64,000 nt of DNA. Source: an uncultured Candidatus Micrarchaeota archaeon (GTDB taxonomy: Archaea; Micrarchaeota; Micrarchaeia; Anstonellales; Bilamarchaeaceae). The notes beneath the pieces were generated by a model that worked only from the letters and a program-made list of their open reading frames with translations, searched no databases and was not told the origin of the DNA. Shown piece after piece: positions 11,998-43,222 of this stretch (position 1 is its first letter; each line of letters starts with the position of its first letter). Both the position numbers and the translations under genes were made by a program. Location: contig OY970229.1 of assembly GCA_963714085.1 (NCBI GenBank), positions 256,001 to 320,000 of the forward strand, written 5' to 3'.

Positions 11998-12166
11998 ACG
12001 CGTTCCAGGTGCGGTAAGGAGACGATTATACGTGCTCATATTCTTTTAGCGCTTTAAGAACCTCATTTGCGACAAGCCCGAAAGAAGGCACTTTCATTAG
12101 GAATCGCCCCGGCTCAATTTCAATGCCGTGAAATCCAGGTCTTCAGAACGTCCAGCCTGACCAGGT

Positions 12167-12190
12167 AAAGTTAACAAAATAGTTAACTTT
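12167..12190. promoter_or_regulatory. Palindromic operator upstream of the wHTH-nucleotidyltransferase gene
   Basis: AAAGTTAAC-N6-GTTAACTTT perfect 9-bp inverted repeat next to an AT-rich TATA-like stretch. Confidence 0.5.
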
Positions 12191-12225
12191 TAATAATCTT
12201 CTATTACATATATTCTACGATACGC

Positions 12226-21864: not shown

Positions 21865-23163
21865 TTACACCCGCGGTTTTTTTAAATGGTGGGCAGCTTC
21901 TTTTCGAACAGGTTGACTATGGATTGTATCCATTCTCTTGATTGAATCGATATCTAAAGAAAGTAAGGTCCTCAGATTTAAGGGGCGATAACCAATCAAC
22001 TCGATACTAACATTTATGGTCCGTTTATCCCCGTTTATGAACGGATAATCACGAATATCATTGTTGTGCTTATGGCCATGAATTATCCAACCGTCCCACC
22101 TGATGGGTATTTTGTTTGGATCGTGAATAAGAAGGAAATCGTGCCCGCCAAAATTGAGTATTTTATACTCTTTTTTATTGGGTAGACCAGCGTCATGGTT
22201 TCCACCAATATAAACGATTTTTCCGTTAAGTTGTCTGGTCCAATATGAATGCGAATGGGAACTCTTGCCATAAACCAGGTCTCCCAGGAAATACACTGTA
22301 TCACCGCTGTCGATTGTGTTATTCCAGTTATTGATGAGTACTCGGTTCATTTCTTCGGTATCTTTAGATAAAAAGGGACGGTAACAGTAGCGGATTATGT
22401 TCGTATGGTCAAGATGAAGGTCGGATACTATGAACGGATCATCGTGGGATAGTTTTGGTTTGTTTGTAAGTTCGGTCCCGGTCTTAAACCTTAGAAGCGC
22501 TAATGTTCGTTTCATCTGTCTTGAGCTTAATGCTTCTTCACGGCTCAGGAAACGTTTTTGCAAAAGGTCATACTCGAAGACTATCTTGCTTCGGTCGTTC
22601 AACAATGTTATCCTAGTGCCAAATCCGAGTAGATACGGGATTACTTTATTGTAGCGTTTCTTTCCGGTAAATAGCGATAAAACAGAATCGAGTATACCTT
22701 TATCGTCTTTGTTTAAGTAGTTCCAGATGAGAGTATAGCTTTTGTCGGATAGATGATTTCCGATAGTGATATGGAACCATGCTTCACCTTTCCTGTCGAA
22801 AGACTTTGTTTGAGGGGTTATTCTTAGCAACTTTGCCGTTATCTCCTTCTTGAATTTCAGTAGGGAATCCGAAGGGCGGACTTTGAATGCGATTACTTTT
22901 CCTCTCCCATCGGCGTTGTTTTTCCATTCATAACCGTCTACAGTGAATTCGAATGAATCGTACTTTTTTGCAGTTTCTTCTATGCAGTCTCTCAATTGGG
23001 ACAACCGAGTATTTCCAAGATTGAAAGTACCGTATAGAGTGAAATGAGGAACAGTATGAGTAAGTTTAAGGTGGCCTGCTTTCTTTGCATTGATGATAAT
23101 TTGGCGTAGTTTGAACTTCTCGGGACCCATTCGAATTTCTAATAGCACAATAAGATTCCTCAA
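21865..23163 (-). CDS. 2H phosphoesterase fused to calcineurin-like metallophosphoesterase
   Basis: Two HxT motifs (PHFTL, FHITI), then SDLHLDH, LGD, GNHD and HGHKH; markedly AT-rich. Confidence 0.85.
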   Translation of the reverse strand: MRNLIVLLEIRMGPEKFKLRQIIINAKKAGHLKLTHTVPHFTLYGTFNLGNTRLSQLRDCIEETAKKYDSFEFTVDGYEWKNNADGRGKVIAFKVRPSDSLLKFKKEITAKLLRITPQTKSFDRKGEAWFHITIGNHLSDKSYTLIWNYLNKDDKGILDSVLSLFTGKKRYNKVIPYLLGFGTRITLLNDRSKIVFEYDLLQKRFLSREEALSSRQMKRTLALLRFKTGTELTNKPKLSHDDPFIVSDLHLDHTNIIRYCYRPFLSKDTEEMNRVLINNWNNTIDSGDTVYFLGDLVYGKSSHSHSYWTRQLNGKIVYIGGNHDAGLPNKKEYKILNFGGHDFLLIHDPNKIPIRWDGWIIHGHKHNNDIRDYPFINGDKRTINVSIELIGYRPLNLRTLLSLDIDSIKRMDTIHSQPVRKEAAHHLKKPRV

Positions 23164-25891: not shown

Positions 25892-26908
25892 ATGCTTATG
25901 ACATATGAGTCAACACTAGCCCTGGCTGAGGGTTACCTCAGAAAGCACATCGTGCCAGAGGCGGAGTTCGGCCTCGCGCACACCATAGAGACGGACGACT
26001 GGATGTTCCTGGCGGACCCTCGCGTACCCGACAGGCGCATGCAGCTCACGCTCGCGCATACGGGCTCCTACAACGATTGCCTCTCCATCGCGGAGAGGCT
26101 GTACCTCGACATCAGTTCGCGCAATCCGGAACTGGGACCCGCGATGGCCATGAGCACGGGCGCCGACGTGCACAACTGGGTGCAGATACGCGACCCGGAG
26201 ACCCGCGAGATGGCGCAGATAGACGCCACGCCCTGGTTCGCGCGCCTGAACCCGGGGCACGATGGCGCTGAATGGCAGTACGAGCCGCTGCCGATGCTGG
26301 TCCAGCTGATGATGATCCCATTCAGCGTCAGGAAGACAAGGCACGACAGGTTCATCACCGTGGGGCTGGAGGGGATCCTGCCGAGGTGCAGGGACGCAGC
26401 GGAGAAGGACGGCCCCGCGGCAGGTGAGGACGGGCCGCTATTCAGCTTCATTTTCCAGATCCGGAAGGACCTAGGCTTCGGGACCAAGCCGGAACAGGCG
26501 ATGCACGTCTTCATCGACGTCCTGGATATCGACCGGCTGCACGGATCGCTCAAGTCCAAGGGGTCGATGGACGACCTGATTGCGGCCAGGGCGATAAGGG
26601 CCGGTTTCACCGCCTTCTCGGACGAGGGGACCGCGTTCCTCGCGCTTAGCAGCATGGGGGCCATGCACCAGGCGGCCGGGCAGACGCGGGATACTGAGCT
26701 TTTCGCGGAGTTCGACCGTTCTGTGCCGACCATCTTGAAATTATTGTCCGGCGCGGGCTCGCCGCTTCCCATCGCGGGGAGGCTGGACCAGGAGCTGGAC
26801 GTGGCCAACGGGAGAATCAACGCGAGCGACGGCAGGAAATACCGCGATTTCATCAGATTGCTGGACAGGAAGCTGCAGGAGCCGAGAAAGAGGATACGAA
26901 CGGGATGA
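25892..26908 (+). CDS. Hypothetical protein with possible transglutaminase-like Cys-His-Asp triad
   Basis: NDCLS...VHNWV...QIDATP spacing. Confidence 0.55.
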   Translation: MLMTYESTLALAEGYLRKHIVPEAEFGLAHTIETDDWMFLADPRVPDRRMQLTLAHTGSYNDCLSIAERLYLDISSRNPELGPAMAMSTGADVHNWVQIRDPETREMAQIDATPWFARLNPGHDGAEWQYEPLPMLVQLMMIPFSVRKTRHDRFITVGLEGILPRCRDAAEKDGPAAGEDGPLFSFIFQIRKDLGFGTKPEQAMHVFIDVLDIDRLHGSLKSKGSMDDLIAARAIRAGFTAFSDEGTAFLALSSMGAMHQAAGQTRDTELFAEFDRSVPTILKLLSGAGSPLPIAGRLDQELDVANGRINASDGRKYRDFIRLLDRKLQEPRKRIRTG

Positions 26909-26936: not shown

Positions 26937-28610
26937 TGCAGGGGACGAAATCTCCGGGCAGGTCTGACCTTTCCTTAGCGCTGCGATGTCAAATTTGGCA
27001 TCAAGTAAAATATAGCCCATCTGCCGGAGTTAACCGGTTGCTGCCCATATATAGCACGACCTAACAGGAGCTGGCAAAATTAATTCAAAATATTGCTAGG
27101 CAATGATAACTGAGGATTTGAGCATTGATCCTCTCTTATCGTTAATCTTCATCCTGCTAAACTGATACAGAAACCATAAAACTATAATCATTCGATTACG
27201 TTATCGTTCTATATCAGGAAAAGTAATCTACTTCGATTCTGCGAGCTGCTTGACCTGTTCAAGCACTCCTAAATCGAATACTTCTTCAAAAGGAGCATTA
27301 AAGTTGTTCACGCAGAACTTATGCAGCATTTTTCTCGCAATTTCATGTACATGCTCCGGATCGCTTTCAGTCAACATCGGCACAGGACCGAAACCGATTC
27401 CTTGTAATGCCTGGAGTATAAGCGCCTCGGATCCACCGTGTTCGGTGACCTTATTCAGAACACCTGCTGATTCACCTTGAACAGCAACATACATCATTAA
27501 TGCCAACTGATGAAAAGGTCGTTTACCATATGAGAGCTCTGCGCTAAGCGGAAACACTTCCTCACTTATCGCTAGCCTGGACTTCAGCTTAGCATGGATC
27601 AGTTCGTGGAAGATTAGGTCGTAGAGCATATCATGGATCGCTTTTTCTCTGTCATCTTCGGTCTTAAACTTGTTGTTCGCACGTGCATCACGGACGTACA
27701 ACGCAATCGCAAGCAGCATCTTGAGGGCATTCTGCTCTGGAACACCCCCATCCAAAGAGATCCGCCTAGCGAGTGAGAAGTATTCATCGGCAGAAGGCTC
27801 GGCGGGAGTAATGAATGCCTGAATGTCATTAGCATGTTGGTCTAATACGACCTGTGGAATTTGAAATGATTTAGAAAGCATCCCGGTTTTCAGATGTTCT
27901 CTGCCCATTTCATATTGTGCAAATTCACGCAGTTTGTCCTCATAAATCAGAATAACCTTCGCTTCATTGAAAGTTCGCCCTAGGATGCCATCCTTAACCT
28001 CTCCTTCTGTCCTTGACAGGACATAGACGTGAGTATCGCCTACAAGGGAATTCTTTCGTACCGTTCCCACAACTACATCTTCGTCTGGAAAGCTTATCAG
28101 AAGGATTTGATCCTTATCTCGGATAAAATGTTCTCCTTCAGGCCTGGAAGCTAACTTCCCGGCAAGTGATTTTACCGCAGGGTTGAGGGCAAACGAAAGC
28201 TGACGTTCCCAATTATCCAAGGAGGTTTCACTAATACTCAGCTTTTCTTTCCGAAGCCAATCGCTAAATTCTTTCATAGACTCCTCTGAAGTACCCATGC
28301 GCTTTGATCCAAAAACACTACGGCAGTTTGCGGCAGCGATTGCGTAAGGCATCGCAACCAGAGGGATTAGGACCTGACGTCTTGAATAAGTTTGCATATG
28401 TATATAATAATGGCTAAACTTTATAAAACGAATTTATCTTTGCCCTCGACCCTCGCTTTAAAAGCTCTGCTCTCCAGACCGTCTTTCGGTCGGACGGACC
28501 CATTGGCCTGAACTCAGGCCAGATCTGAAAGCGCTAGGGCAGGATTTGAGACCAGCTCTGAGGACACCACCAGGGTAAGACCTCAGAGCAGATCAGAATG
28601 CAGGGGACGA
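26937..28610. mobile_element. Non-autonomous mini-element in tandem with the large element
   Basis: Bounded by TGCAGGGGACGA (tRNA-Leu 3' end) at 26937 and 28599. The left ~95 bp resemble 28599-28700 and the right ~150 bp resemble 48446-48594. One cargo gene, no integrase. Confidence 0.75.
27228..28397 (-). CDS. Putative exported HExxH metallopeptidase-like protein
   Basis: N-terminal SRRQVL (twin-Arg-like), hydrophobic stretch and Cys; FHELIH...SEE; lower GC. Confidence 0.6.
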   Translation of the reverse strand: MQTYSRRQVLIPLVAMPYAIAAANCRSVFGSKRMGTSEESMKEFSDWLRKEKLSISETSLDNWERQLSFALNPAVKSLAGKLASRPEGEHFIRDKDQILLISFPDEDVVVGTVRKNSLVGDTHVYVLSRTEGEVKDGILGRTFNEAKVILIYEDKLREFAQYEMGREHLKTGMLSKSFQIPQVVLDQHANDIQAFITPAEPSADEYFSLARRISLDGGVPEQNALKMLLAIALYVRDARANNKFKTEDDREKAIHDMLYDLIFHELIHAKLKSRLAISEEVFPLSAELSYGKRPFHQLALMMYVAVQGESAGVLNKVTEHGGSEALILQALQGIGFGPVPMLTESDPEHVHEIARKMLHKFCVNNFNAPFEEVFDLGVLEQVKQLAESK

Positions 28611-28611
28611 G
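28519..28611 (+). repeat. 93-bp direct repeat (att arm plus core), copy 1
   Basis: Identical to 48502-48594 except 28530 A vs 48513 C. Confidence 0.95.
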
Positions 28612-28706
28612 TTCCCCGAGCAGGTCTGAGGTCTGAACCGTCTTTAGCGCTCTGATGTCAAATTTGGCATCAGTCATAAAATAGTCCGTCGGCCGGAAGT
28701 GATGGC

Positions 28707-29906
28707 ATGGCGGATATAGATTTGTATAACTACCCGAGAAGGCTGAAAAGTGCGATTGATAAGGCGGATAAAGACGCGAAGGTCTGCCCGGACAACAAGC
28801 GGGACATCGTCTCTTTTTCCAAGATCCGGCTCGCGAAGGGTTCGAGCCACGGGCGGGTCGCCAAGGTAGTCTATTGCATGACGAAGTGGGCGAGATGGCT
28901 GGGAAAACCGTTCAGGGAAGCGACCAAAGACGAGCTTATCATGGCCGTGGGCAGCCTGGAAGACGAGGAGCTGTCCGAGTACACGAAATATGATCTGAAA
29001 ATCGTCCTGAAGATGTTCTACAAGTGGCTGGAAGGCAACGACGAGGTGATGCCCGCCAAGATAATCTGGCTCAAGCCGAAGATAAAGAACGAGAGCCACA
29101 AACTGCCGGAGGAACTGCTTAATGAAGAGGAGATTTTGAAGATAGCCGAGGCTACCGAGAACGTCAGGGATAAGGCGTTCGTGCTTATCCTGTATGAATC
29201 CGGCTGCAGAATAGGGGAATTGCTTACTTTGAGGATGAAAAACATCCAATTTGACCAGTACGGGGCCATCCTAAGGGTAAATGGAAAGACGGGGGACAGA
29301 CGGGTAAGGGTTATTAGCTCGGCCCCAGCCTTGGCTTCGTGGATCGGGCTTCACCCTATGGGAAAAGAGCCTGACGCCATGTTATGGCATTCGACCTGGA
29401 GAAACATCAATAGAGGCCAGAGGAACCTGTGCCATGGAACGGTTTACACCTTGCTTAAGCAGTATGCAGCCAAAGCAGGGATAAAGAAACGGATTTATCC
29501 GCACTTATTCAGGCATTCCAGGGCTACTTCTTTGGCTTGTAAATTGACCGAGGCACAGATGAAAGAGCATTTTGGGTGGGTGCAGGGCTCGGATATGGCA
29601 GCCACATATGTTCATCTTTCCGGGCGGGATGTTGACAATGCTCTTCTGAAATTGCAGGGACTGGTTCAAACTCAAGAGACAAAATCCGAGAAACTCAGTG
29701 TACGAGTATGTCCACGGTGCAAGGATCACAATTCGCCGGTCTCGAAATATTGTACTAAGTGCGGCCTTCCACTGGACGAGAACATGATAGCGAAAATCGA
29801 GGAGATGAAAGGGAAGAGTAATAACCTGATGAACCGGCTGATGGATGACGACGAATTCAAGAATTTCATGGTAAAGAGGATATCAGACCTTGGGCTTAGC
29901 CTTTGA
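28707..29906 (+). CDS. Tyrosine recombinase/integrase with C-terminal Zn ribbon
   Basis: YESGCRIGE (R), NGKTG (K), HLFRHS (HxxR), FGW, TYVH (Y); CPRC...CTKCG. Confidence 0.95.
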   Translation: MADIDLYNYPRRLKSAIDKADKDAKVCPDNKRDIVSFSKIRLAKGSSHGRVAKVVYCMTKWARWLGKPFREATKDELIMAVGSLEDEELSEYTKYDLKIVLKMFYKWLEGNDEVMPAKIIWLKPKIKNESHKLPEELLNEEEILKIAEATENVRDKAFVLILYESGCRIGELLTLRMKNIQFDQYGAILRVNGKTGDRRVRVISSAPALASWIGLHPMGKEPDAMLWHSTWRNINRGQRNLCHGTVYTLLKQYAAKAGIKKRIYPHLFRHSRATSLACKLTEAQMKEHFGWVQGSDMAATYVHLSGRDVDNALLKLQGLVQTQETKSEKLSVRVCPRCKDHNSPVSKYCTKCGLPLDENMIAKIEEMKGKSNNLMNRLMDDDEFKNFMVKRISDLGLSL

Positions 29907-30293
29907 TTTGCTTTCCTCTATGAGTTTATTGAGTTTAACCGCCCAAGCCGGGAGCTGCTTTTCGAGCTCTTTTTGTTCGGAGTCTGACATGATTGAAATC
30001 AGATTGAAGGACTACTTATTGGTTGATGGAAAATTTGATGCTGGGATGTTAAAGGTTCGAATCGTCCGAAAATGGCATATGCTCGGAAATCTGATTTCGG
30101 GTCAGTGCGCCTTACAAGGGAAGGTAACAACCTTTTTCGACCTTCGACACAGGTCGACTAGCGCCTAATGGCGTTAGAGCGTCATGGGCTAATCTTCAAA
30201 TAGGCTGCAGTCTAATATGATAATAGCGAGGAAAGGAACTGGAATCGAACAGCCCAGGAAAAGATAAAAGAATATTGGAAAGCGGACGAAATA

Positions 30294-31130
30294 GTGATTT
30301 ATATGGACCGCATCGATCAAGCATTAGCGAATCAAATACTAGACATGGGAAAGTTAATTCACATGTGGGGAGTTGAGGATGCGAGTTCATCTTTAAACTC
30401 AGCAAAAAGAGATTATTCAGCTAATGATTATAACCACGCAGTCGATTCGATGACTGATTGTAGCGAACGAATAGCCAAAGGCACCATTTTGTTACACCTA
30501 ATAGCTCTAGACCCCAAAAAGTTCAGATTCAATTTGAGACGTAAGAAAGAACTTCTTGATAACTACTCCCATTACCGTTCTCTTATTGAAAAAGGTATCG
30601 GGCACGATACGCCGAAGATTTTTCATGAAATATTGAGCTATTATTCGGAATCTACTGGGACTGTCGATTACCAGGCCTTTCAAGCATTCGAGAAAAATTT
30701 AGGTTGCGATGAAGATGGTATACTGAAAAACTTGGATAAGATTAAATATGACGAAGTCCATGCAGCTGTTACCGCGGCTCTTAACCAAATAAAAACATCA
30801 ACAGAATCCTCAGTTGGTTCAACTGCCGATGCGATGCTCGCAAATTCCGGAATGTTTAATCCGGTTGCAGCATCACTAGGCATCGAGAAAAAAACTGCGT
30901 TAGATACATATGAGAAGCATCACCTACTGGATCTTGATTCCGACGTATTAATACATACGAAAATATTTTCCTACTGGTATAGGAACTCAATCAGATACCG
31001 AGACAATCCCAAAAGAATAGATTTTAACAAAGAAGAATATCGTTGGTTTGTCGATGTGATTCCCGAGAACTTCGCGCTATTTGAAAAGGACATTGCCATA
31101 CTGCGTGGAATCTCTCGTAAAAAGGATTGA
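30294..31130 (+). CDS. Putative HEPN-domain protein, possibly 5'-truncated
   Basis: SAKRDYSANDYNHAV...CSERIAKG and SIRYRD resemble the HEPN helical pattern; frame is open without a start back to 30216. Confidence 0.5.
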   Translation: MIYMDRIDQALANQILDMGKLIHMWGVEDASSSLNSAKRDYSANDYNHAVDSMTDCSERIAKGTILLHLIALDPKKFRFNLRRKKELLDNYSHYRSLIEKGIGHDTPKIFHEILSYYSESTGTVDYQAFQAFEKNLGCDEDGILKNLDKIKYDEVHAAVTAALNQIKTSTESSVGSTADAMLANSGMFNPVAASLGIEKKTALDTYEKHHLLDLDSDVLIHTKIFSYWYRNSIRYRDNPKRIDFNKEEYRWFVDVIPENFALFEKDIAILRGISRKKD

Positions 31131-31134
31131 GAAA

Positions 31135-31875
31135 ATGAATGATGAAACTACCAAGAAACTTCAAGAGATTCGGAACCGGTTCGACAAACTAGAAGAAGCT
31201 GTTAAAATTAAAGACGTCGCTATCAGAAAGATAGTTGATGAAGTTGGCTTAGCTAATGTAAAACCGCGTAGCCTTGCTCACTATCTTCTTCTATGGGGGT
31301 TATTCTCAAAATCCAATGTTATTGATAAAGAGTTGCGGCGTGAGCTTGAAGAAAGTAATCCTTGGCCTTTTTTTATTCTACTCAGGCATCAACTTGAGAT
31401 GTCTGCTACGGTAAATTGGGTACTAAAAAATGAAGATGTTGAAAAAATTGCATTTGGAACAAAACCTTACGATAAAGAAGACAAACGACTTGGAATGCCC
31501 ATAGGGTATCTTTCTAGGCCAGATATCGTGTGGCTTAACATTCCACATATAATGGACTTAATCCGGGAAATGGATAAAGAAATTAGGAAAAAAAGATCTC
31601 CCAATGATATTGAAAAGGATGGTTTTACATCAATTGAAGCAATTTATGGATTATTATCAGATTTATGCCACCCAAACGCCTTCGGACTTCATCTTTTTTT
31701 TAATTCAGCAGCGCGCACACCAAGAAAATTTACTACACACCCAAAATTTGAAGGTGAGCAACTAGATTATTGCACAAAATTTTATATTGAAATCTCAGAA
31801 TTCCTTATAACAGCGTTAGAGCTATACGTTTCTCATATTGAGGAAAAAATTGAAGAACTAGCAAAAAGAGTCTGA
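31135..31875 (+). CDS. Hypothetical helical protein (HEPN-like/DUF5677-like)
   Basis: ILLRHQLE...IYGLLSDLCHPN pattern; AT-rich. Confidence 0.55.
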   Translation: MNDETTKKLQEIRNRFDKLEEAVKIKDVAIRKIVDEVGLANVKPRSLAHYLLLWGLFSKSNVIDKELRRELEESNPWPFFILLRHQLEMSATVNWVLKNEDVEKIAFGTKPYDKEDKRLGMPIGYLSRPDIVWLNIPHIMDLIREMDKEIRKKRSPNDIEKDGFTSIEAIYGLLSDLCHPNAFGLHLFFNSAARTPRKFTTHPKFEGEQLDYCTKFYIEISEFLITALELYVSHIEEKIEELAKRV

Positions 31876-32237
31876 TAAGCATGGTAGGGTACGAGAATCA
31901 TAAGTGGAAGTCGAATCCCTTCGTGATCGACCCGGTGCCGGACAGACACCTCCATAATCGAGGACATCCGCTCTAAGGTGGAGCTTCTTTAGTAATTTGA
32001 TAGAAAATCTGATATTCTAATCTCAAAGGTTCAAATCTCTGGCAGCACATACTTTGCTGCCTGTTGCGCCCTAACCACTACCCTAATTAACTTTGACGCT
32101 CTCTTTTGCATGGGATTGCCTTTTGGGGGGAGTCTGAACCCTAGTAAGCTCAGACGATGATACCCATTGGCATAACTAGCAATTAAGCATTTCTACAGAG
32201 CCATAAAACTTATAATCCTTAGACAAGTAAGGAAATC

Positions 32238-32744
32238 ATGAAGAATACGCTATGCCTCATCCTATGTTTGACGTTGTTGGGTAGTGGTTGCGTATCCAAA
32301 GAGGGCCCCATAACCCAGCCCACAACAGGTTCGAATGAAGTGAATTGTAATAATATCCTCACCCCCGAACTGATAATTGTTATGCTTAACGGCTCCGCCT
32401 CTTGGGTGTATGGCCCGCAAATGCAACCTGGTTTTAAGTTCTCTTCAGAGTTCATGAATAACCCGCCAGTTTGTCACTATGGAAATGCCATGGGGCAGAA
32501 TGTGAATCACCTCTACTGCCAACCCTACGAGCATGGAACGCATATAGTATATGCGAGTGCAGAAAGAACGAATGTGAGCAGTAATGGAACAATCAGCAGC
32601 CATGAATGTTATATTATAAATGTAAATGAGCTTGCACCAGGAGACGAAACGCCTCCCGAATTTCAAGCTGAGCTTAAGATGTACCCGAATGCAATTGCGT
32701 ATCAGGCGTGGGATATAGTCAATGTAACGTGTGAACCGTGCTAA
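32238..32744 (+). CDS. Putative lipoprotein
   Basis: MKNTLCLILCLTLLGSG-C lipobox-like signal. Confidence 0.7.
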   Translation: MKNTLCLILCLTLLGSGCVSKEGPITQPTTGSNEVNCNNILTPELIIVMLNGSASWVYGPQMQPGFKFSSEFMNNPPVCHYGNAMGQNVNHLYCQPYEHGTHIVYASAERTNVSSNGTISSHECYIINVNELAPGDETPPEFQAELKMYPNAIAYQAWDIVNVTCEPC

Positions 32745-32853
32745 ACGAAATAATGCGACCAAAGCGGGCCGCAAATCTGGTTTTGAATGCCGACTGTCAG
32801 ATTAGATTAGTACTAAGAATCAGCGTAAGCTCTGCGCAATTCAAGCTCTGAAA

Positions 32854-33750
32854 TTAAATCTTGAGGTGTGCTCTCAGGGCGGGAACAATTCGGTAATAAC
32901 AGATGAAACAGACACCACCATAGATATAACCGAAGTAGTGAGTGAGTATATCAACAAAACTTCCATTAACGGCTGGATTTGGCGGGAATATTAATAGCGG
33001 CGATGCAAAGAAAAGAAGGACTAGGATTGTCAAAAAAAGATAATTGGCGGGGTTGTCTGTTTTTTCGGATTGTATCTGTTTCAAAATTTCGTGTATTTCA
33101 TTTTTATCGAAGTATATACACCCGATCATAAAAGCAAAAATGATGCATGGATACAGTATATTTTGGTAGTAAGGGAGATAAATGACTGCTAGAAGAAACG
33201 CAGGGTACAAGATAAAAATAAGAAGCACCCCGTCTTTCAATAAATCTTTCCCAATTTTTTTACTTGCAAACAGAACAAGAATGAATAGAGTAAAAGCAAA
33301 AATTCCAGCCTCGATACCGGATAATCCTTGAGAAGTTTGCTCCTTTTGGAAATACCCCGGGGAAACGATTGGTGAGAGGTAAGTGACTAAGAAAAAGGTT
33401 AATGCGAGAATAATTATGAGATATAAGTAATTCCGTTTTTCGTTTATCTTAGTCAGTACCAATAACTGGGGGATGACAAATAAGAAATATGCAATCAGGT
33501 TATTTGAGTAATGGGTAAAATTAGTATGGACAAAGTTTGACGTGAAATATTGCCACCAACTGGGGTTTTTCATTTGAAGGACTAGCAGATCATGGATGTT
33601 CGATGGAACAAACATCAAAAGCGTGGCTATGCATGGCAACGCCAGAATAATTGCTAAATCAATCGGGCTGATAAGACTGAGTGTACCTCGAAGTTCGGTA
33701 AATATGTTTGCGATTTTTTGTATGTTGATTGATAATTTGGGTATTCTCAT
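32854..33750 (-). CDS. Rhomboid-family intramembrane protease-like protein
   Basis: WWQYFTSNFVH..FTHYSNN, QGLSG (GxSG), THYFG; multiple TM helices. Confidence 0.7.
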   Translation of the reverse strand: MRIPKLSINIQKIANIFTELRGTLSLISPIDLAIILALPCIATLLMFVPSNIHDLLVLQMKNPSWWQYFTSNFVHTNFTHYSNNLIAYFLFVIPQLLVLTKINEKRNYLYLIIILALTFFLVTYLSPIVSPGYFQKEQTSQGLSGIEAGIFAFTLFILVLFASKKIGKDLLKDGVLLIFILYPAFLLAVIYLPYYQNILYPCIIFAFMIGCIYFDKNEIHEILKQIQSEKTDNPANYLFLTILVLLFFASPLLIFPPNPAVNGSFVDILTHYFGYIYGGVCFICYYRIVPALRAHLKI

Positions 33751-33818
33751 AGCGGTACCCTGTTATAAGGCATGATTGGTGATGTAAAACTTTAAATTAA
33801 TGCCTGCGATTTGAGAAT

Positions 33819-33953
33819 TCATTCAGAGTTGTACCTATCCTTCAAAAACAGATACGCTAACCCTAATATAACGCCTGCCCCGGCAACAGCAAACAAACTT
33901 ACCCCCATAACCAACGCGATTGAAAGCGCGCTGGATAAAATATCCATATTCAT
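33819..33953 (-). CDS. 44-aa single-pass membrane peptide
   Basis: Manual translation MNMDILSSALSIALVMGVSLFAVAGAGVILGLAYLFLKDRYNSE; GAGGT upstream of the ATG. Confidence 0.5.
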   Translation of the reverse strand: MNMDILSSALSIALVMGVSLFAVAGAGVILGLAYLFLKDRYNSE

Positions 33954-34036
33954 GACCTCGTTTATTTACTACTTGTTTTTTCAGTCTATTTAAATGTGTG
34001 TTAACACGTAGACATCCAAGACTGAAGAGACGGCCG

Positions 34037-34071
34037 AGACTGCGAATCTCTCGTAGAGATTCGTAGTCTGA
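34037..34071. repeat. 15-bp imperfect inverted repeat site
   Basis: AGACTGCGAATCTCT-CGT-AGAGATTCGTAGTCT(GA); degenerate copies at 34896-34961. Confidence 0.8.
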
Positions 34072-34165
34072 GCTTTGACTACATGCCCCATATTCAGATT
34101 ATTATTCCATTCAGAATATCTTTAACAGTAATATTAATATAATCGGAATATCATACGGGTATATT

Positions 34166-34897
34166 ATGGTCATGGAACGCAAGGGCTCCCGACGGCACCA
34201 AAAAACCGGATTCCTCGGATTGTTCAGGAAGAAGCTGAAGAACAAAAAACAATGGAAAGCGGATTGCGACTGGAAGGTCAGCGGAGAGAAGGACGGCATT
34301 GTTTATTACGCGGTGATAGACTTCCGTTTAAAAGAAAAAAGCGGATTGCTTTTCGATGAGAACGGGGTGGCTTACCATAAGGCCAGGTTCGAGGCGGACA
34401 CGGGCTTTGACGCGATCGATGGCGAGGATCACAGGACTTTCGATAGGGAACTTGTAGGGAATACCTGCTTGGCGAGCGGAATGATGAACCGATGCAGCCA
34501 ACTGCTGGAAGACACCTATACGGTCATGCCAAAGAAAGGCGCGAAAACCTGGAGGGAGTTTCTCGTATATTTCAACAGAAATAAGAGAAGGATTTGCGAT
34601 GAGGTGAACGAGATAGTGTCCGAGGCCGAGTACGCCGGTGATGTTTACGGTAAGAAAAAGCAGAGCAAAGACAAGATAATCAATGAGATTGCAAGGAAAA
34701 CCTTTGAACCGATAGAACCCTCAACGCTGGACCGATTTGATGTCTTCAAGGCGTGGTATACCGAAAAACTGAGGGGTCTGGATTATGCGAATATGGCCAA
34801 CAGAGTGGAATGGAAAGAAGAAGGGAAGATACGGGCGCTGGTAGTACGGGAATTAGAGGAACATGGATTTGTGAGAACAAAAGAAGAAAAACGATGA
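34166..34897 (+). CDS. Hypothetical protein flanked by palindromic sites
   Basis: 243-aa ORF, basic N-terminus, higher GC than neighbouring cargo. Confidence 0.7.
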   Translation: MVMERKGSRRHQKTGFLGLFRKKLKNKKQWKADCDWKVSGEKDGIVYYAVIDFRLKEKSGLLFDENGVAYHKARFEADTGFDAIDGEDHRTFDRELVGNTCLASGMMNRCSQLLEDTYTVMPKKGAKTWREFLVYFNRNKRRICDEVNEIVSEAEYAGDVYGKKKQSKDKIINEIARKTFEPIEPSTLDRFDVFKAWYTEKLRGLDYANMANRVEWKEEGKIRALVVRELEEHGFVRTKEEKR

Positions 34898-34961
34898 ATC
34901 GGGATTTCTTGCCGAGATTCGCAATCTGATTGCGAAACTTTATCAGAGATTCACAGTCTGA
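34896..34961. repeat. Two tandem degenerate copies of the 34037 palindromic site
   Basis: ...CGAGATTCGCAATCTGA and GATTGCGAAACTTT-ATC-AGAGATTCACAGTCTGA, with a 32-bp period. Confidence 0.7.
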
Positions 34962-34976
34962 TTATGGATCCCTAGA

Positions 34977-35801
34977 TTAATTTTCAAAGACTTCGAACTC
35001 TTGCATATACCACCAATGAGTTCCATCTGTTTGATCTGCGGTAATTCGCAGGTATCTGGCATCAACTGAAGTGAAATTGTATTGAATTGGAACTTGTGGG
35101 GGACTCGAAGTTTCAGTTACTAACCTAGTCCAGTTATTACCGTCAAATGAATAATCAATATGCCACTTGACCGGGAAGTCAGACCATGAAGCGCCAGGAT
35201 TTGCGTATATCACAATTCTTCCAACGTTTGTTTGCGAACCGAGATCAACCTCCCACCAATTACCTGCATAATTAGCAGTGTTGGTTGCAAAACGATGCGC
35301 ATCCGTGTAAGTTGTAATATCGCCGTCTAGTGCCCCTTCCGCAGTTTGACTGTTTATGCTAGCTGTTGCGGTCTTACCTAACGCAAGATTAGTTCCTTGT
35401 GTTGTTATATCTGTACTTCGATTATACGAAATGCCTTGCTCTGTTTGAGACGTGGATATATTTGTTTCGTTATTCTGTTCTGAATTAATATTCGAAGAGC
35501 TACTAGCTTGTGTTTGGGCTGTTGGACAATCTCCACATTTGCTACATCTATATGATTGAATCCTCTTTTGTAAGGCTGGACTACCCCCACCGTATTCAAG
35601 TAAATCACAAACTTCTTGGCAATGGTCCTGATTTAGACCCGAGTCAGTCCGATTAACCATGCATAGAGCAACACAATAACTATTATCACTGTCGAGTATC
35701 CCTCTTCCAGGGCAATTTAAGCCAGTTTTCGAAGAGCTACCAGTGCATCCAAAAACTAAAAACAAACTTACCAAAATAAAAATAATGCAGATTTTATTCA
35801 T
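34977..35801 (-). CDS. Lipoprotein with C-terminal discoidin (F5/8 type C) domain
   Basis: LVFG-C signal; NLALGKTATAS..ALDGD..WWEVDLG..ARYLRI..EFEVF. Confidence 0.85.
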   Translation of the reverse strand: MNKICIIFILVSLFLVFGCTGSSSKTGLNCPGRGILDSDNSYCVALCMVNRTDSGLNQDHCQEVCDLLEYGGGSPALQKRIQSYRCSKCGDCPTAQTQASSSSNINSEQNNETNISTSQTEQGISYNRSTDITTQGTNLALGKTATASINSQTAEGALDGDITTYTDAHRFATNTANYAGNWWEVDLGSQTNVGRIVIYANPGASWSDFPVKWHIDYSFDGNNWTRLVTETSSPPQVPIQYNFTSVDARYLRITADQTDGTHWWYMQEFEVFEN

Positions 35802-36012
35802 ACGTTCTCCCTCAATAAATGATAATGCTCGGTTGTTTAAATATTTGCGTAGTCGACCTGTAGTAAGAGCTAACTCTGATTTTACGAATTTGACGCTTAA
35901 TTCCCTTGTATTTCCCTATAATTTCCCTAATCCCACGTCTGAGAGCTTTTTAACATGGAAATATCCACTGTCTCATTCAAGAATTTTATAACACCTAAAA
36001 TCCAACTATATC

Positions 36013-36216
36013 ATGGCTGACCCGTCTGTGATCGTGGATAAACTGCTCAATTACCTTTCAAAAGAACCGGCCTCAACCCACCAGATCGTATGCGCTACGA
36101 AGCTGCACAACCAAACCGTTAAGAAATACCTCCGGATAATCGAGGATGTCCAGAATTCGCCGAAGTTGAAGAAAGAAGTGCGCGGAATACGGGTATTTTT
36201 CAGAAAAGACGTTTAA
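36013..36216 (+). CDS. Small winged-HTH protein
   Basis: STHQIVCATKLHNQTVKKYL helix-turn-helix plus beta wing. Confidence 0.7.
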   Translation: MADPSVIVDKLLNYLSKEPASTHQIVCATKLHNQTVKKYLRIIEDVQNSPKLKKEVRGIRVFFRKDV

Positions 36217-36385
36217 GTCATTTTTGGTGAAAAATAACATATTTTCAGGTAAAATATGTGAAAACACACATAGATTTTGCTCCCATTATATCGCTATAGC
36301 ACTTCAAAACGTAGTTTTCAAGAAACATTTATAAACATTTTCATACACAATAGATATTAGGGTAAAATGATCGAAAGGTCATGGG

Positions 36386-37468
36386 ATGGGTTTCCAACCA
36401 ATCGCAACGGAGGTTTCCAGCAAAAACCGGATACTCCTAGATGAATTGGCCCTTACGTCCAGGTTCTCTAATAAAAACAGCCTTGGTTGCCGCCAGTTGG
36501 CCGGAGAACGCGTCCTGGAAGCGATAAAACGGCTTCCTGAGGGTCATCCGTCCGAGAACCTATTCATCTGCGGTCCTTCGGGTTCGGGCAAAACCGCCCT
36601 GGTCAGGTGGGCTGTGGACAAAATGGAACAAACTCAAAGGATATTATGTATATACTCCAACTGCCACAGATACAACACCTCGATGTCCATATTTACCAGG
36701 ATTGCGGATGCTTTGGGCGAACCGGTTTCAAGAAGGGGGCGGGCAGTCGATGAGATATTCGACCATATTGTAAAGCTCATGCGCTACTCAAAGAAGCCCG
36801 TCCTTCTCGTTCTTGATGATATTGAAGCGCTTGTCCAGTACGATGGCGCCCGGATACTCCAGAATATCGCGCATTTGGAGGAAGAAAACGTCCATTTCGC
36901 CATTATCGGGATATCCGATAACGAAACCGCGCTTTCGAAGCTTCCGCAAGAAACCCGCGAAGTACTAAGGTTCACAAAAGTAGAGATTCCCCAGTTCACT
37001 CGCGAGGAGCTGCTGGCCCTTCTTAAGGAACGTGCATCCATGGGTTTGCGGCCTGGTTCTTACGACAGTTCGCTGATAGAAGCAATAGCGGGCATAAGCG
37101 AGGCGGTCAATGGAGGAGGTCGTTTCGCTCTTGAAATCTTATGGAGGGCTGCGAGAAGTTCGGAGGAACGGGGACTTGACTCGATACCCCAGCAGGAACT
37201 GGAACGCATAAAGGACAGCTTAGGGCTCCAAGAACGGGAGTTATCCCAGGGCGAGCTTGAAATAGTCAGATTGCTCAAGGACGGCCCTAAAACATCCTCG
37301 ATGCTTTACGCATTGTTCTGGAGGAAAATATCGAAATCCCAGCGGCAGATACGCAACTACATTCATTCCATGGAAGAAAAGGGCATTGTCGAGACCCGAT
37401 TTGTGCGAGGCAAGTACAACTACGGCTCAACGATCATACAACTTAGCGGAGGCTGGGAGCATGACTAA
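36386..37468 (+). CDS. cdc6: Orc1/Cdc6-family replication initiator
   Basis: NLFICGPSGSGKT, YSNC, LVLDDIE, ELLALLKERA, C-terminal wHTH. Confidence 0.88.
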   Translation: MGFQPIATEVSSKNRILLDELALTSRFSNKNSLGCRQLAGERVLEAIKRLPEGHPSENLFICGPSGSGKTALVRWAVDKMEQTQRILCIYSNCHRYNTSMSIFTRIADALGEPVSRRGRAVDEIFDHIVKLMRYSKKPVLLVLDDIEALVQYDGARILQNIAHLEEENVHFAIIGISDNETALSKLPQETREVLRFTKVEIPQFTREELLALLKERASMGLRPGSYDSSLIEAIAGISEAVNGGGRFALEILWRAARSSEERGLDSIPQQELERIKDSLGLQERELSQGELEIVRLLKDGPKTSSMLYALFWRKISKSQRQIRNYIHSMEEKGIVETRFVRGKYNYGSTIIQLSGGWEHD

Positions 37469-37640
37469 CGGGTTAATGATATCGAAAACGAGAGTTAAGA
37501 TGTTTCTCAAGAAGCAGGATATGCGAGTTTCGGAGAATTTTTACCGGGCTTTGGATGATGAGATTCAAGCTATCCTTTTGAAAGTGACAAAGCGAGCCAA
37601 GAGCGATAAACGCACAACCGTTCTTGCGCGTGATGTTTAG
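37461..37640 (+). CDS. Small histone-fold protein (59 aa)
   Basis: MTNGLMISKTRVKMFLKKQDMRVSENFYRALDDEIQAILLKVTKRAKSDKRTTVLARDV: MRVS loop, long helix 2, RTTV..RD signature, short helix 3; overlaps the cdc6 stop. Confidence 0.85.
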   Translation: MTNGLMISKTRVKMFLKKQDMRVSENFYRALDDEIQAILLKVTKRAKSDKRTTVLARDV

Positions 37641-37779
37641 CACAAATAACCGACGATATTTATAGCAATTGCGAATTCAATTGTTCTAAGCCTTAAAACG
37701 CTTGAATCCAGCCGCTGGTGGGCCTGTTTTTTCGCCTTTCCGACAATTGCAAATCGCAATTGTTCATACGATTTGGGCG

Positions 37780-40035
37780 TCAATTCGCTTGAATTCGCTC
37801 AGAAACTCGTGCGGAATTATTGAATAATCTATCGAGGGTTTCTTTAATTTCAGTTCGAAGTATGACGTTGCCGTAAGGATCATAAGTTGATTTAAGCTCA
37901 CGGTTCGTCACCAAAATATAGTAAGTTTTGAACTCGGCTTTAACCTTATCGAATTTCTGTTTCAATGTTTTTTCCTCATCGTGTGAACCTGTTTCAACTT
38001 CAAACGCTATGTTCTCCTTGTCAAAAACAACCACGTCCGGCTTGACGGTATCATAGAGTAACGCGTTCTTTCCGTACTTCTCAATCTCCATCTGCAGTAT
38101 CCTGCAAAAATAGTAATGCTCCGGCCCCTGATTGGTTGGGGGCTTGACGAGCGTTTTTTGTCCTTTGCCCGGGCCAAACGGATTCGTGTCCAATTCAACA
38201 TAGCCGTGTTCCCTGCACATCCTGGCCTGCTCCTCGGTCAGATCCTTGACGAAGAAAAAACCCTCCCTGAGATTGAACCGCTTGGGTGGCCGTTGCACCG
38301 GCCTGTCTACGGTCTCGATTTTCCCGCTCGTTTGCTTCGGATCGGTGGTGAACAGGTTGTGCATGATCTCCGGTACCGTTATCTGGAACTTGAAATTCCC
38401 CTCCTCGCTTAACAGCAGGCCACTCCCCTTGTTGCATTTTATCAGGTAATCCCTTTCCTCTGCGTTCAGCTTCAGCGAGGCGCTAATAGCCTCTATGTTG
38501 CTGGTGCTCTGCTTCATCAGGATTTTCGTGGCCGACAGGTTGAGTATAGATTTTCCCGCGTCCGCCTTGTCGAAGTCCTCTATCTCCTGGGTTATGAATC
38601 CGAGCCCGACCCCGTATTTTCTCGCCGCCTTGATGTATTCAAGGACGTAATCCTCGGCGTTCTTGCTGCGCAGCAGCCCCCAGCCCTCGTCTATGAAGAT
38701 GAATTTCGGGGCCTTGTCCGCCTTCATCCTGCGCGAAACGAAGCCGAGGATGATGAACATGGCCAGGGGTTTAAGCGGCATCGGGATTTTACTCAAATCG
38801 AAGTTCACGATCCTGGCCTTCAGTTCCACGTTGGTGCGCCGGTCAAGGAAAGCGAAGAACCCGTTTTTGGAGTACATCGAAAGCCTGTTGACCAGAACCT
38901 CCAGCGTCCGGATATCTCTCGACCCCTTTTTCCTCTCCTTGTACATCTTCACGCTTTCGTCGTAAACGTCCGAGAACGTGGGCGGCTCGTTCTTCCAGGT
39001 CTTCTCTTCGAGCGGCAATATTCCGGATTCCTCGTAAGCCCTCGGAAGCAGCCGGTTGAGCGCTCCCTTCTGCGATTCCGTGAGGCCGCCGACTATTATG
39101 TCAAAGGCGGCTATCAGTTCCAGCATTTTTGCCTGGAAGCTCTGGTCGCCCAAATCGAACAGGTTGATGCTGTCCTCGGAATCCTGCGCTATCTGGACGT
39201 TCTGCCCTCCCAGCGACGCCACTGTTCCCGCATATTCGGCGTTCGGGTCTATGATGAATATGTCCGCTCCGGCATTGAAGAGGATCTGGACTATGAGGGA
39301 TTTGGCTGTGTAGCTCTTGCCCGAGCCGCTGGTTCCAAGGATGAAGAAGTGCTTGTTGCTGTACTTGTCAAAGTCCAGGTGTATCCTGTTGAGGGTTTCC
39401 AGCTCGTTCCCAAGGAAAACCCCCACCTTATCGGGTTTTGCCGGAGATATGAACGGGAATGTGGCCGCCAGGGAGTTGGTGGGGAATTCCTGCTGCACTC
39501 CCAGCTTGTCAGTGCCCAATGGGAGGCAGGAGCGCAGCGCCGGGGCCATCCGGAAATTGGCTGTTTTCGGTATGATCATTATGGCGTTCATGTTGGCCTT
39601 GCATTTTTCGGTCAACAGGTCGAGCTTGTCCAGGGAACTCTCCTTGTTGTTCACGTACAGCGACACGCGGAACAGCTTCTCCTCGCCCTTGTACAAGAGC
39701 TCGTGCAGATGCCGGGTGTCCGACAGCTTGATCTCCAGCGCCGGATTGGGCGTGCCTTTCTCCGTGCTCATGAACAGGTCTGCGGTCTGCTTGTTGATCT
39801 GGTCGTAGAGGAATATTATCGTCTGGTCTATGCTTGAGGGCTCGATGTGCAGGGAAATGTCGTAATTCTCGTTCTTGGACAGGAACGACCTGAGCCAGCC
39901 ATCATCTATTTTACGCGGGTACCCCACCGCTTCGATGACGCGGTAATAATATTCGTTCACCTTCGCATAATCCTTGCGGACCTCCATGTACGAGGGCATT
40001 ATGAGGCAAGTGAGAAGCTCGTCGTCGTTTATCAT
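37780..40035 (-). CDS. virB4: VirB4/TraC-family ATPase with C-terminal PD-(D/E)xK-like domain
   Basis: NKHFFILGTSGSGKS, IIDPNAEY, INLFD, FIDEGW, ARKYG..ITQ; C-terminal KPDVVV..IAFEVETG. Confidence 0.88.
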   Translation of the reverse strand: MINDDELLTCLIMPSYMEVRKDYAKVNEYYYRVIEAVGYPRKIDDGWLRSFLSKNENYDISLHIEPSSIDQTIIFLYDQINKQTADLFMSTEKGTPNPALEIKLSDTRHLHELLYKGEEKLFRVSLYVNNKESSLDKLDLLTEKCKANMNAIMIIPKTANFRMAPALRSCLPLGTDKLGVQQEFPTNSLAATFPFISPAKPDKVGVFLGNELETLNRIHLDFDKYSNKHFFILGTSGSGKSYTAKSLIVQILFNAGADIFIIDPNAEYAGTVASLGGQNVQIAQDSEDSINLFDLGDQSFQAKMLELIAAFDIIVGGLTESQKGALNRLLPRAYEESGILPLEEKTWKNEPPTFSDVYDESVKMYKERKKGSRDIRTLEVLVNRLSMYSKNGFFAFLDRRTNVELKARIVNFDLSKIPMPLKPLAMFIILGFVSRRMKADKAPKFIFIDEGWGLLRSKNAEDYVLEYIKAARKYGVGLGFITQEIEDFDKADAGKSILNLSATKILMKQSTSNIEAISASLKLNAEERDYLIKCNKGSGLLLSEEGNFKFQITVPEIMHNLFTTDPKQTSGKIETVDRPVQRPPKRFNLREGFFFVKDLTEEQARMCREHGYVELDTNPFGPGKGQKTLVKPPTNQGPEHYYFCRILQMEIEKYGKNALLYDTVKPDVVVFDKENIAFEVETGSHDEEKTLKQKFDKVKAEFKTYYILVTNRELKSTYDPYGNVILRTEIKETLDRLFNNSARVSERIQAN

Positions 40036-40902
40036 TCAGCGCACCTCCTTATCCGTGTTGAACGAATCATAGATCGTTATCCTGGAAAGATAGTCGTCGC
40101 CTATCTCGACATAGCCCTCGAAATACGACATGAGCAGCGATATGAGCTGGTTGTTCGTCAATCGTATGGCAACGAGCCCGCAGTAGCCCAGCCGTTCCTG
40201 TATCAACTCGGCCCGAAGATTCAGCTCCTTTACCTGGTCGTCCTCCTTGATTCGCCTGGTCATTGTGCGCTTATTTTCCAATGGGACTACGACGTAGTAG
40301 ATGCGCTCCTTTATGGCATGGCTTTCTATGAATTCGGTTTCGTATTTCCGGAATTCCTCGTATAGTTTCTTGAGGTTTTTAGCCCCGGACTTTTCTATGC
40401 GGGAATACTGGGCTGAATAATCCGGCTTCACGGAATTGACTGTGCGGACGATTATCTGTATCGGGAACGTGAGCTGGTTGAGGAATTCCCTGTAATTGAG
40501 GATCAGGGAGCGCTTTCTGGAATCGTCCATCAGCTCGAAGTTCACCGGCTTCACCAATACCACGGCGCGGAGCTCGCCGTTTTTCAGGAACATGGCGTTT
40601 CTTTCGATTTTTTTGACTTCTATGAACCCCTTCACCTTGGCGTCTAGGTACCCGCCAAGCCGTATGTCGGTCATGAACCCCAGCCAGGTCAGCAACTTGG
40701 TTTCTAAGTCGAAAATGGCGAAGCATACGCCAATCAACACGAATATCGATACCAGTGCGATTCTGGCTTCCTCAGGCAACGGCAAGCGATACGCCAAAGC
40801 AGCGATGACGAGGAACAATACGATGTACCCGAATTGCTTCAAGTCGAGATTGAGGAATATTTTCTCCTTGTATCTGATTGTGTCAGGTATGTCGTAACCC
40901 AT
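40036..40902 (-). CDS. PrgI/VirB3-like membrane protein fused to a TrsD-like domain
   Basis: YDIPDTIRYKEKIFLNLDLKQFGY plus 2 TM helices; PVNFELM..FLNQLTFPIQI. Confidence 0.8.
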   Translation of the reverse strand: MGYDIPDTIRYKEKIFLNLDLKQFGYIVLFLVIAALAYRLPLPEEARIALVSIFVLIGVCFAIFDLETKLLTWLGFMTDIRLGGYLDAKVKGFIEVKKIERNAMFLKNGELRAVVLVKPVNFELMDDSRKRSLILNYREFLNQLTFPIQIIVRTVNSVKPDYSAQYSRIEKSGAKNLKKLYEEFRKYETEFIESHAIKERIYYVVVPLENKRTMTRRIKEDDQVKELNLRAELIQERLGYCGLVAIRLTNNQLISLLMSYFEGYVEIGDDYLSRITIYDSFNTDKEVR

Positions 40903-40906
40903 AGTA

Positions 40907-43010: not shown

Positions 43011-43221
43011 AATAATGACCTCCGGAGAACATGGAGCCGATTAAAGGGGCAAGATAGACGATGCAGAGGCCGATGATCACGCCCAGGATTACGTCTTTCC
43101 ACTGCTTTCGGAATATCGGATCCTGGCTGATGGTCAGCATAAGGCCGGAATACGCAATCATCACGATCCCGGCGACTGTGGCTAATAGCTTGATGCTGTC
43201 CGCTATGGCCTCAAGGGTCAA
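43003..43221 (-). CDS. TrbC/VirB2-like pilin
   Basis: Two hydrophobic helices separated by a charged loop (..IAYSG...KQWKDVILGVIIGL..LAP). Confidence 0.7.
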   Translation of the reverse strand: MTLEAIADSIKLLATVAGIVMIAYSGLMLTISQDPIFRKQWKDVILGVIIGLCIVYLAPLIGSMFSGGHYCG

Positions 43222-43222
43222 G

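Follow-up and report, generated by a model that had tools for sequence, protein, structure and literature searches.

An integrase-less unit with attachment-site ends, stacked with an integrative element at a tRNA-Leu gene of a Micrarchaeota archaeon

We report here an analysis of a 64,000-nucleotide stretch of DNA (the window) from an uncultured Candidatus Micrarchaeota archaeon, positions 256,001 to 320,000 of contig OY970229.1 in the assembly GCA_963714085.1, which represents a genome of 1.57 Mb in a single contig with a GC content of ~62%. Within the window, three attachment (att) cores copied from the 3' end of a tRNA-Leu(GAG) gene delimit a 1,662-bp small unit and a ~20-kb integrase-bearing element, stacked at that gene. 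The small unit is a real unit resembling the cis-mobilizable elements (CIMEs) of bacteria, in tandem accretion with an element that resembles an integrative and conjugative element (ICE), and it is one of a family-wide set in the Micrarchaeota.

Two units at the 3' end of tRNA-Leu(GAG)

The sole tRNA gene of the window, tRNA-Leu(GAG), lies intact on the minus strand at 48582-48665 (ARAGORN and Rfam; 50.1 bits to the Rfam tRNA model). Its last 13 bases (48582-48594), with the sequence TGCAGGGGACGAG, form the proximal att core, which is repeated without mismatch in the middle core on the plus strand (28599-28611, 13 of 13 bases). The distal core, also on the plus strand (26937-26949), matches 12 of the 13 bases; it is the oldest copy and forms the left boundary of the small unit. 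The remaining core matches in the window, at 18703 and 26874 with two mismatches each, are no more than expected by chance (mean 1.59). The GC content falls from ~0.62 to 0.44 exactly at the small unit and remains low across the large element (0.37-0.55 between ~27000 and 48600), the DNA to the left of 26937 being host-like at ~0.62.

Each unit begins with a core followed by an arm of the integrase-proximal type. The left arm of the small unit (26950-27030, plus strand) contains CAGGTCTGA, TTAGCGCT, an inverted repeat, GATGTCAAATTTGGCATCA, at 26984-27003 and a TATA-like GTAAAATATAG at 27005-27015, and in that of the large element (28612-28700, plus strand) the inverted repeat occupies 28653-28672 and a TATA-like ATAAAATAG occupies 28676-28684, the latter 23-31 nt before the ATG of the integrase gene. 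Alignment of 26937-27028 with 28599-28697 gives 31 nt at 87% and 69 nt at 80% identity, with a spacing of 1662/1669. Scored on both strands with up to three mismatches, the inverted repeat occurs in the window only at these two arms, against 0.02 occurrences expected by chance. The original prediction, made from the letters of this DNA, had proposed a third att core at 26937 followed by an arm like that upstream of the integrase, and the 12/13 core, the ~80% identical arm and the shared inverted repeat bear it out.

The other end of each unit is a right arm, at 28452-28598 in the small unit and, by arm profiles and sequence comparison, at 48433-48581 in the large element, both on the plus strand. 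From 28519 to 28611 and from 48502 to 48594 the two are 98.9% identical over 93 nt (80 nt of arm plus the 13-nt core), as the original prediction had stated; fainter homology extends back to ~28452 and ~48433, so that the diverged portion measures ~65-80 nt and not the ~55 given there. The stretch 28452-28700 thus reads as right arm, core and left arm, the arrangement of an attP site. This attP-like junction is a strong, imperfect palindrome whose fold as single-stranded DNA lies well beyond that of shuffled sequences (z = -6.0). Two hairpins in the right arm covary among 20 copies and 16 pairs, with 86.4% of cells paired and double changes in six pairs and 22 cells. None of 500 shuffles reached this level, a control inflated by the kinship of the copies, and slid registers gave at most 44.8% paired; RNAalifold, unaided, recovered the core-proximal hairpin and a 3-bp stem only. 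The right arm matches no known RNA, a search of 26000-49500 against Rfam at E <= 1 returning the tRNA alone, and the dyad symmetry can reflect inverted protein-binding sites or DNA structure. Additional small perfect hairpins are inserted between conserved right-arm blocks in three related loci (L016, 420-500, in G001:C40; L021, 7860-8010, in G062:C29; and L074, 680-870; for example GGCAATC..GATTGCC and GAGCCGC..GCGGATC), and the right arm may thus grow by gaining palindromic modules.

Between its arms the small unit holds a single open reading frame (ORF), the cargo gene P0001 (27228-28397, minus strand, 389 aa), and no transfer (conjugation) genes. A palindromic TTTATAAA at 28420-28427, 23-30 nt upstream of the P0001 ATG, is its own predicted promoter. 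That the small unit lacks an integrase, as originally claimed, was confirmed: tblastn with E up to 100 returned only matches of 15 and 24 residues (E 1.6 and 6.3), and tblastx found no similarity between the interior of the unit and the large element.

P0001 has no match in Pfam or NCBIfam and is predicted to be an HExxH...E protein exported by the twin-arginine translocation (Tat) pathway with a lipobox. The twin-arginine-like SRR..L motif and a Cys at the lipobox-like position are kept in its closest homologue, P0004, and H264-E265-x-x-H268 together with E280 is invariant across 11 family members. With its AlphaFold model (predicted local distance difference test score 87.2), Foldseek found nothing in the Protein Data Bank at E <= 0.001; exhaustive structural alignment placed it nearest to an Fe/pterin enzyme resembling dipeptidyl-peptidase III (DPP III) (Z 10.0, 255 residues aligned), with Z scores of 9.9, 7.2 and 5.8 against DPP III chains and ~5 for unrelated rows. 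The label 'exported peptidase-like' given by the original prediction is therefore a reasonable one for the predicted protein, without implying membership in the M49 family. The P0001 family is rare: a word-index search gave one other protein, on a 1,596-bp contig, and exhaustive HMMER over 1.84 billion representatives gave 10 further relatives at E <= 0.001. The searches for related loci among genome and metagenome contigs yielded no P0001 relative with genomic context. Its closest genomic homologues, in the genus g15, occupy a mutually syntenic chromosomal neighbourhood with a GC content of 0.41-0.44, without arms or a tRNA within the loci. The cargo looks foreign.

The large element (28599-48594) carries the tyrosine integrase gene P0002 directly after its left arm (28707-29906, plus strand; 399 aa, with a C-terminal zinc ribbon; Phage_integrase, 2.5e-20), and P0002 is the only candidate recombinase for the small unit and the large element alike. 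The low-GC body of the element extends from 29907 to 48432, between the integrase gene and the right arm, and a 92-aa ORF at 29890-30168 is a candidate directionality factor. Encoded in the element are a Cdc6/Orc-like ATPase, a VirB4/TraG-like ATPase (match to the TraG P-loop, 8.3e-23), a PrgI-like protein below the Pfam cut-off, two DNA methylases, Vsr, a rhomboid and an F5/8-type-C protein. Its Phage_integrase protein, its transfer-type ATPase and the att repeats that mark its ends at a tRNA gene are features of an integrative element, and it is an integrated plasmid- or ICE-like element, only putatively conjugative because no relaxase was recognized among its proteins.

A further copy of the inverted-repeat and TATA module lies at ~44359-44389 on the minus strand, ~20 nt upstream of the start of the N6/N4 methylase gene (44339), and the module also precedes a second integrase paralogue adjoining a tRNA-Glu gene elsewhere in the genome. 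Given its position upstream of the integrase, methylase and integrase-paralogue genes, the module is taken to be a promoter/operator, which suggests that a single element-encoded regulator may control the integrase and the methylase operon. The left arm thus includes a promoter/operator with a further copy within the element, and recombination need not involve the whole of the arm. In the small unit, no plus-strand ORF of at least 50 aa starts after the module, so its promoter/operator is an orphan.

Three further explanations of the small unit and its arms were rejected. Chance repeats are excluded by the match statistics of the cores, inverted repeat and arms. Direct copies of a tRNA end form the boundaries, and neither terminal inverted repeats nor a target duplication is present, which excludes a transposon or miniature inverted-repeat transposable element, and a phage satellite is excluded by the lack of an integrase, regulator or packaging function in the small unit.

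Related units in other Micrarchaeota

As a DNA query, the whole small unit matched 10 of 61 genomes (this one counted), through its arms only, while the junction 28440-28710 matched 24 of the 99 genomes of the family, in five of its 23 genera. When one genome of every prokaryote species was scanned for an exact pattern of right end plus core, 18 distinct loci emerged; 16 of them belong to records with Micrarchaeota or Micrarchaeia in the title, one to a record titled 'archaeon' and one to a 9.4-kb contig titled Promethearchaeota. In this genome the window-type right arm occurs at just three places. That it could be native host DNA downstream of tRNA-Leu is excluded by the junction matches in 24 of 99 genomes and by the genome's other tRNA-Leu genes, which lack the arm; the arms appear to be mobile-element DNA and not host DNA.

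Profiles of the arms were built first from this genome and a genome of the same genus (G001), rebuilt from 35 right-arm and 18 left-arm copies, and mapped onto the fetched loci, which were also searched for the integrase (tblastn) and for tRNA genes (ARAGORN). As a result, we identified 18 units running from a left to a right arm, 627-4179 bp in length, including that of the window; the other 17 are in 13 related Micrarchaeota genomes, and three of these 17 hold an internal partial left arm and may each represent two units. Copies of a tRNA 3' end, together with a left arm of ~40-100 nt and a right arm of ~160 nt, delimit the units. Their ends are stereotyped, with the core followed by (G)CCTCTGAGCAGCTCTGAGGTCTGA on the left, and a hairpin, CTCAGAGCAGATCTGAA and the core on the right, the core sequence differing according to the targeted tRNA-Leu isoacceptor. 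Retention of the left arm varies from 38 to 98 profile positions, and degeneration of the core is greater in the distal copies, in the window as well as in contig G062:C29. Across genera whose host GC content differs by ~20 points, the arms of the integrase-less units are 74-88% identical. At least seven units terminate directly at a tRNA-Leu-type gene, several of these genes bearing an intron. Another 12 metagenome contigs hold more integrase-less units, of ~0.9-2.9 kb, and one integrase-bearing element directly after a right arm.

With respect to the arms, the cargo ORFs of the 18 units are found in both orientations. The relatives' 17 units contain 30 ORFs, none of which matches any integrase family, and tblastn detected an integrase trace (residues 1-32) in one unit only, that of G086:C34. 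Pfam matches were obtained for 18 of the 30, among them AAA_14/DUF4143 ATPases, cytidine deaminase, TrmB, TFIIB, Fic, an S-adenosylmethionine (SAM) methyltransferase, LysE, a Pol-beta-type nucleotidyltransferase, DUF2703 and ankyrin proteins. The cargo is mostly unrelated between units, apart from a pair of 558 and 545 aa (57% identity), an ATPase pair (65%) and weaker ATPase and TrmB similarities. The original prediction had proposed a search for the same arms around different cargo, with a unique deletion remnant lacking cargo variants as the outcome that would count against it; the 17 further units supply the former, and the latter was not seen among the relatives. Its expectation that units could accumulate in tandem at tRNA-Leu is likewise borne out, by three units beside the tRNA in G062:C29, with no integrase within the 16 kb examined, and by three segments at tRNA-Leu(TAA) in the present genome, described below.

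Such a set of units might be a dedicated cassette system, integron-like in function, in which standard-ended units of one to three genes would be produced and passed on as such, and not as mere products of decay, and would be inserted by integrases acting in trans into tRNA-Leu genes serving to capture genes. The abundance of small units whose ends are stereotyped and whose accessory genes are diverse and intact would suit such a system, as would the stacks without any integrase in cis, the strong if imperfect palindrome of the attP-like junction with its covarying hairpins, and the absence of an integrase trace from 16 of the relatives' 17 units although the integrase gene begins ~10 nt past the left arm. 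However, the left arms vary in extent and one unit retains an integrase stub; the left arm bears an integrase promoter, useless in a cassette; and the cargo genes are of mixed orientation with a promoter of their own. P0002 scores 44.7 and 35.9 bits against two integron-integrase models with cut-offs of 265 and 435, far below both. In addition, scans of IMG/VR found neither free small circles nor a free attP form (no match to the right end plus core and none to the left-end motif), and a site-specific crossover at the core cannot by itself put new cargo between arms. We regard a dedicated cassette system as quite unlikely.

The boundary of the small unit recurs in G001, where contig G001:C52 carries an orthologue of the left host gene (25892-26908 in the window; 55% identity) and the same boundary, ATAAGAAG in place of ATAATAAG in the window, followed by a degenerate core, a left-arm stretch of ~40 nt and a different gene, encoded on the opposite strand; an integrase is lacking. 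Another G001 contig begins with a right arm 94% identical to that of the large element in the window, followed by tRNA-Leu(GAG). The architecture of the window, with a different core, is found in G001:C40, which reads left arm, AAA_14/DUF4143 ATPase and deaminase genes, right arm, core, left arm and integrase gene, the integrase being 77% identical to P0002 over the 80 residues before the contig ends. Another unit's right arm directly precedes the integrase-bearing element not only here but also in L053, L022 and L074.

This recurrent adjacency could be taken to mean that 26937-48594 is one composite element of 21.66 kb that always moves whole and contains an internal att-like duplication, and composite transfer of a CIME with an ICE is documented in bacteria (PMC5704250). 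The cargo of the preceding unit is different in every case, however, and the left arm of the small unit is closer to the G001 arm (91% over 69 nt) than to that of its neighbour (~80%). Furthermore, P0001 is found elsewhere without a relative of the large element, and G093:C1 holds a similar 21.6-kb element with no small unit of this kind next to its left arm; going upstream, the first right-arm end and core are ~7.7 kb away, beside a distantly related integrase (30.8% identity). A single element moving always as a whole is therefore improbable.

Origin and mobility of the small unit

We assign a probability of about 0.7 to the reading of 26937-28611 as a CIME-type mini-element that is flanked by att sites, lacks an integrase and belongs to a family of tRNA-Leu-targeting tyrosine-integrase elements of Micrarchaeota. 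In the order of events that we infer, which includes an origin by deletion, a related element would first have integrated into the 3' end of tRNA-Leu(GAG). Its integrase and backbone would then have been lost, leaving the left end (the core, presumed integrase sites and the integrase promoter/operator), one distal cargo gene and the right arm. Finally, the 20-kb element would have integrated into the regenerated tRNA end, displacing the older unit outward and creating the attP-like junction at 28452-28700. Both ends of the small unit are of the same type as those of its neighbour, so P0002 could act on it: recombination of 26937 with 28599 would excise the small unit alone, in trans, and recombination of 26937 with 48582 would excise both units as a composite, by cis-mobilization. 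Mobilization by the neighbour's integrase, as the original prediction had inferred, is plausible on the basis of these ends, although no circle, empty site or composite junction was seen in the contigs that hold the locus.

The orphan promoter/operator, the variable truncation of left arms and the integrase stub of one relative make the units look like decay products of full elements. Several observations nevertheless weigh against the CIME reading. The distal core at 26937 carries a single mismatch, and there is no integrase pseudogene in the window unit, so that the origin by deletion rests on the orphan promoter and the relatives. A P0002-like integrase was undetected in two of the five unit-bearing genomes, G062 (81% complete) and G089 (88% complete), whose units may be stranded. 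Because a unit is recognized only if it has both arms, the search itself accounts in part for how well the two ends seem to be preserved. No two contexts shared an identical cassette, the genomes compared all belonging to different species. The two sequencing runs that hold the locus, X1 (share 0.73) and X2 (share 0.16), are represented by contigs only; these low-depth contigs contain no joint and are uninformative on circles or empty sites, and a loose end at 28611 running into the tRNA is ambiguous, given the 99% identity of the two right arms at that point.

Some of these observations would also suit an inert remnant of a dead element, whose att sites have fallen into disuse and which persists through useful cargo or slow deletion, the stack being a fossil record and not a working array. 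The orphan promoter/operator, the mismatch in the distal core, the stub in G086:C34, the units of G062 and G089 without a detectable related integrase and the lack of a joint or circle in the contigs of the locus-bearing runs are all in keeping with such a remnant, and a review of archaeal recombinases ascribes integrase-less integrated elements to integrase loss (PMC8371274). Disuse would not readily explain why the arms of integrase-less units have stayed 74-88% identical across genera ~20 GC points apart, why both right-arm hairpins are kept by compensatory changes, or why the right arm of the small unit is 99% identical over 93 nt to that of its presumably active neighbour. Moreover, two species of one genus carry different units at the same boundary. 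An inert remnant is in our view unlikely.

A broader proposal would be that the 3' ends of tRNA-Leu genes in Micrarchaeota serve as gene-capture platforms, at which the integrases of ICE-like elements or of unseen plasmids would insert, excise and reshuffle units of one to three genes in trans, each unit having a standard left end of ~40-100 nt and a right end of ~160 nt rich in hairpins. We offer this as a speculative and rather doubtful extension; if true, such platforms would parallel integrons in function while being made of attP-type arms, and much of the exchange of accessory genes among these genome-reduced symbionts would pass through them.

Comparison with known systems and further loci

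CIMEs and their tandem accretion were defined on streptococcal elements of the ICESt1/ICESt3 type (PMC5704250, section 2.3; PMC6323972), and the route set out in that section runs from integration through decay to the accretion of a new element at the regenerated end of the target. The variable retention of left arms, the integrase stub and the degenerate distal cores fit this published route. Like a CIME, the small unit has at its ends sites of the attL and attR types that belong to a family of integrative elements, and contains no genes for integration or transfer. As in CIME accretion, it stands in tandem with an integrase-bearing element at a tRNA 3' end, with the newer element beside the intact target, and three alternative excision products are expected. 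Unlike the described CIMEs, it has an archaeal host (Micrarchaeota, DPANN), a single gene and a partner that is only putatively conjugative, and it is known here from sequence alone; furthermore, relatives hold stacks of several units without a nearby integrase.

In archaea, arrays that re-use one tyrosine-recombinase site have been described (PMC6563490), and integrase loss after integration is accepted (PMC8371274), as far as the relevant sections of these reports go. The stack in the window is like these arrays in its tandem integration at one tRNA-type site. The elements treated in those sections are integrase-defined, multi-gene and at least 2.6 kb in length, and not 0.6-4-kb integrase-less families with conserved arms. 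Among the open-access papers searched, those on integrases, tRNA genes and mobile genetic elements in Micrarchaeota do not treat such units, judged by titles and the opening of abstracts, and none links integrons and attC with archaea and Micrarchaeota.

The units resemble mobile integrons in that small accessory-gene units pile up in tandem at one site via a tyrosine recombinase, and in recombination sites rich in dyad symmetry, which is a resemblance only. The term 'integron-like' in the original prediction nevertheless does not hold. There is no IntI-type integrase, P0002 scoring far below the integron-integrase models; the site consists of a tRNA 3' end with arms of ~100 and ~160 nt, in place of an attI at the start of the array and an attC closing each cassette; and the integrase rides on a 20-kb element and not on a fixed platform. 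Integron cassettes are mostly promoterless, in one orientation and served by a platform promoter, whereas the cassettes here have their own promoters and lie in both orientations. In their short, tRNA-shared core and long arms with reiterated motifs (TCTGAG / CTCAGA, CAGRTCTGA), the att sites are like those of lambda-type (heterobivalent) integrases, and these motifs are plausible sites for the integrase or accessory proteins.

The DPANN archaea have tiny genomes and their gene exchange is poorly understood; the locus and its relatives reveal a family of tRNA-Leu-targeting integrase elements among them. These elements leave behind, or perhaps traffic, att-flanked accessory units encoding exported proteases, ATPases, regulators, toxin-like Fic and nucleotidyltransferase proteins, and transporters. 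The conserved ends provide a signature for finding islets in metagenome-assembled genomes that would otherwise be annotated as ordinary chromosome, and the repeated arms break assemblies at such islets. If mobility is confirmed, the CIME and accretion mechanism would be extended from Firmicutes-type bacteria to archaea.

Outside the window, a second stack in the same genome occupies G000:C1:487073-498410 at tRNA-Leu(TAA) (locus L059, 486500-499000), where the core TGCAGGAGGAAG is found at 487073, 487753, 489623 and, as the tRNA end, 498325. The three segments between these cores lack a P0002-like integrase. The first, of 0.68 kb, contains a DUF4389 gene, a tRNA-like fragment and a window-type right arm; the second, of 1.87 kb, a Na+/H+ exchanger; and the third, of 8.7 kb, an oxidoreductase, two radical-SAM proteins, a tetratricopeptide-repeat (TPR) glycosyltransferase and an aminotransferase. 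Segments 2 and 3 begin with another type of left arm, the core plus ATGCCGAGACCAGGRCTCGGAACAGAAC, which also precedes a P0002-like integrase in G090:C18. The second arm type and the core TGCAGGAGGAAG recur in a ~0.9-kb unit at G000:C1:637424-638337 (L060), which has one ORF of 203 aa without a Pfam match and adjoins the end of an intron-bearing tRNA-Leu-type gene.

Further low-GC patches lie to the left of the small unit at 7000-9000, 12000-13000 and 22000-23000 (0.41-0.55 against ~0.62), with no match to the arm profiles. The locus L053, on a 9,429-bp contig that is the sole match titled Promethearchaeota and may be a binning error, contains at 330-6879 a compact 6.4-kb element of the family that follows another unit's right arm and comprises a left arm, integrase, cargo including an AAA_14-like ATPase, and a right arm. 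Besides P0002, this genome has two integrase paralogues, 61% and 42% identical to it, which are located at G000:C1:1308139-1309606 and 1287834-1289329 and adjoin tRNA genes for Glu-CTC and Asn-GTT, respectively, the first being preceded by the inverted-repeat and TATA module of the left arm.

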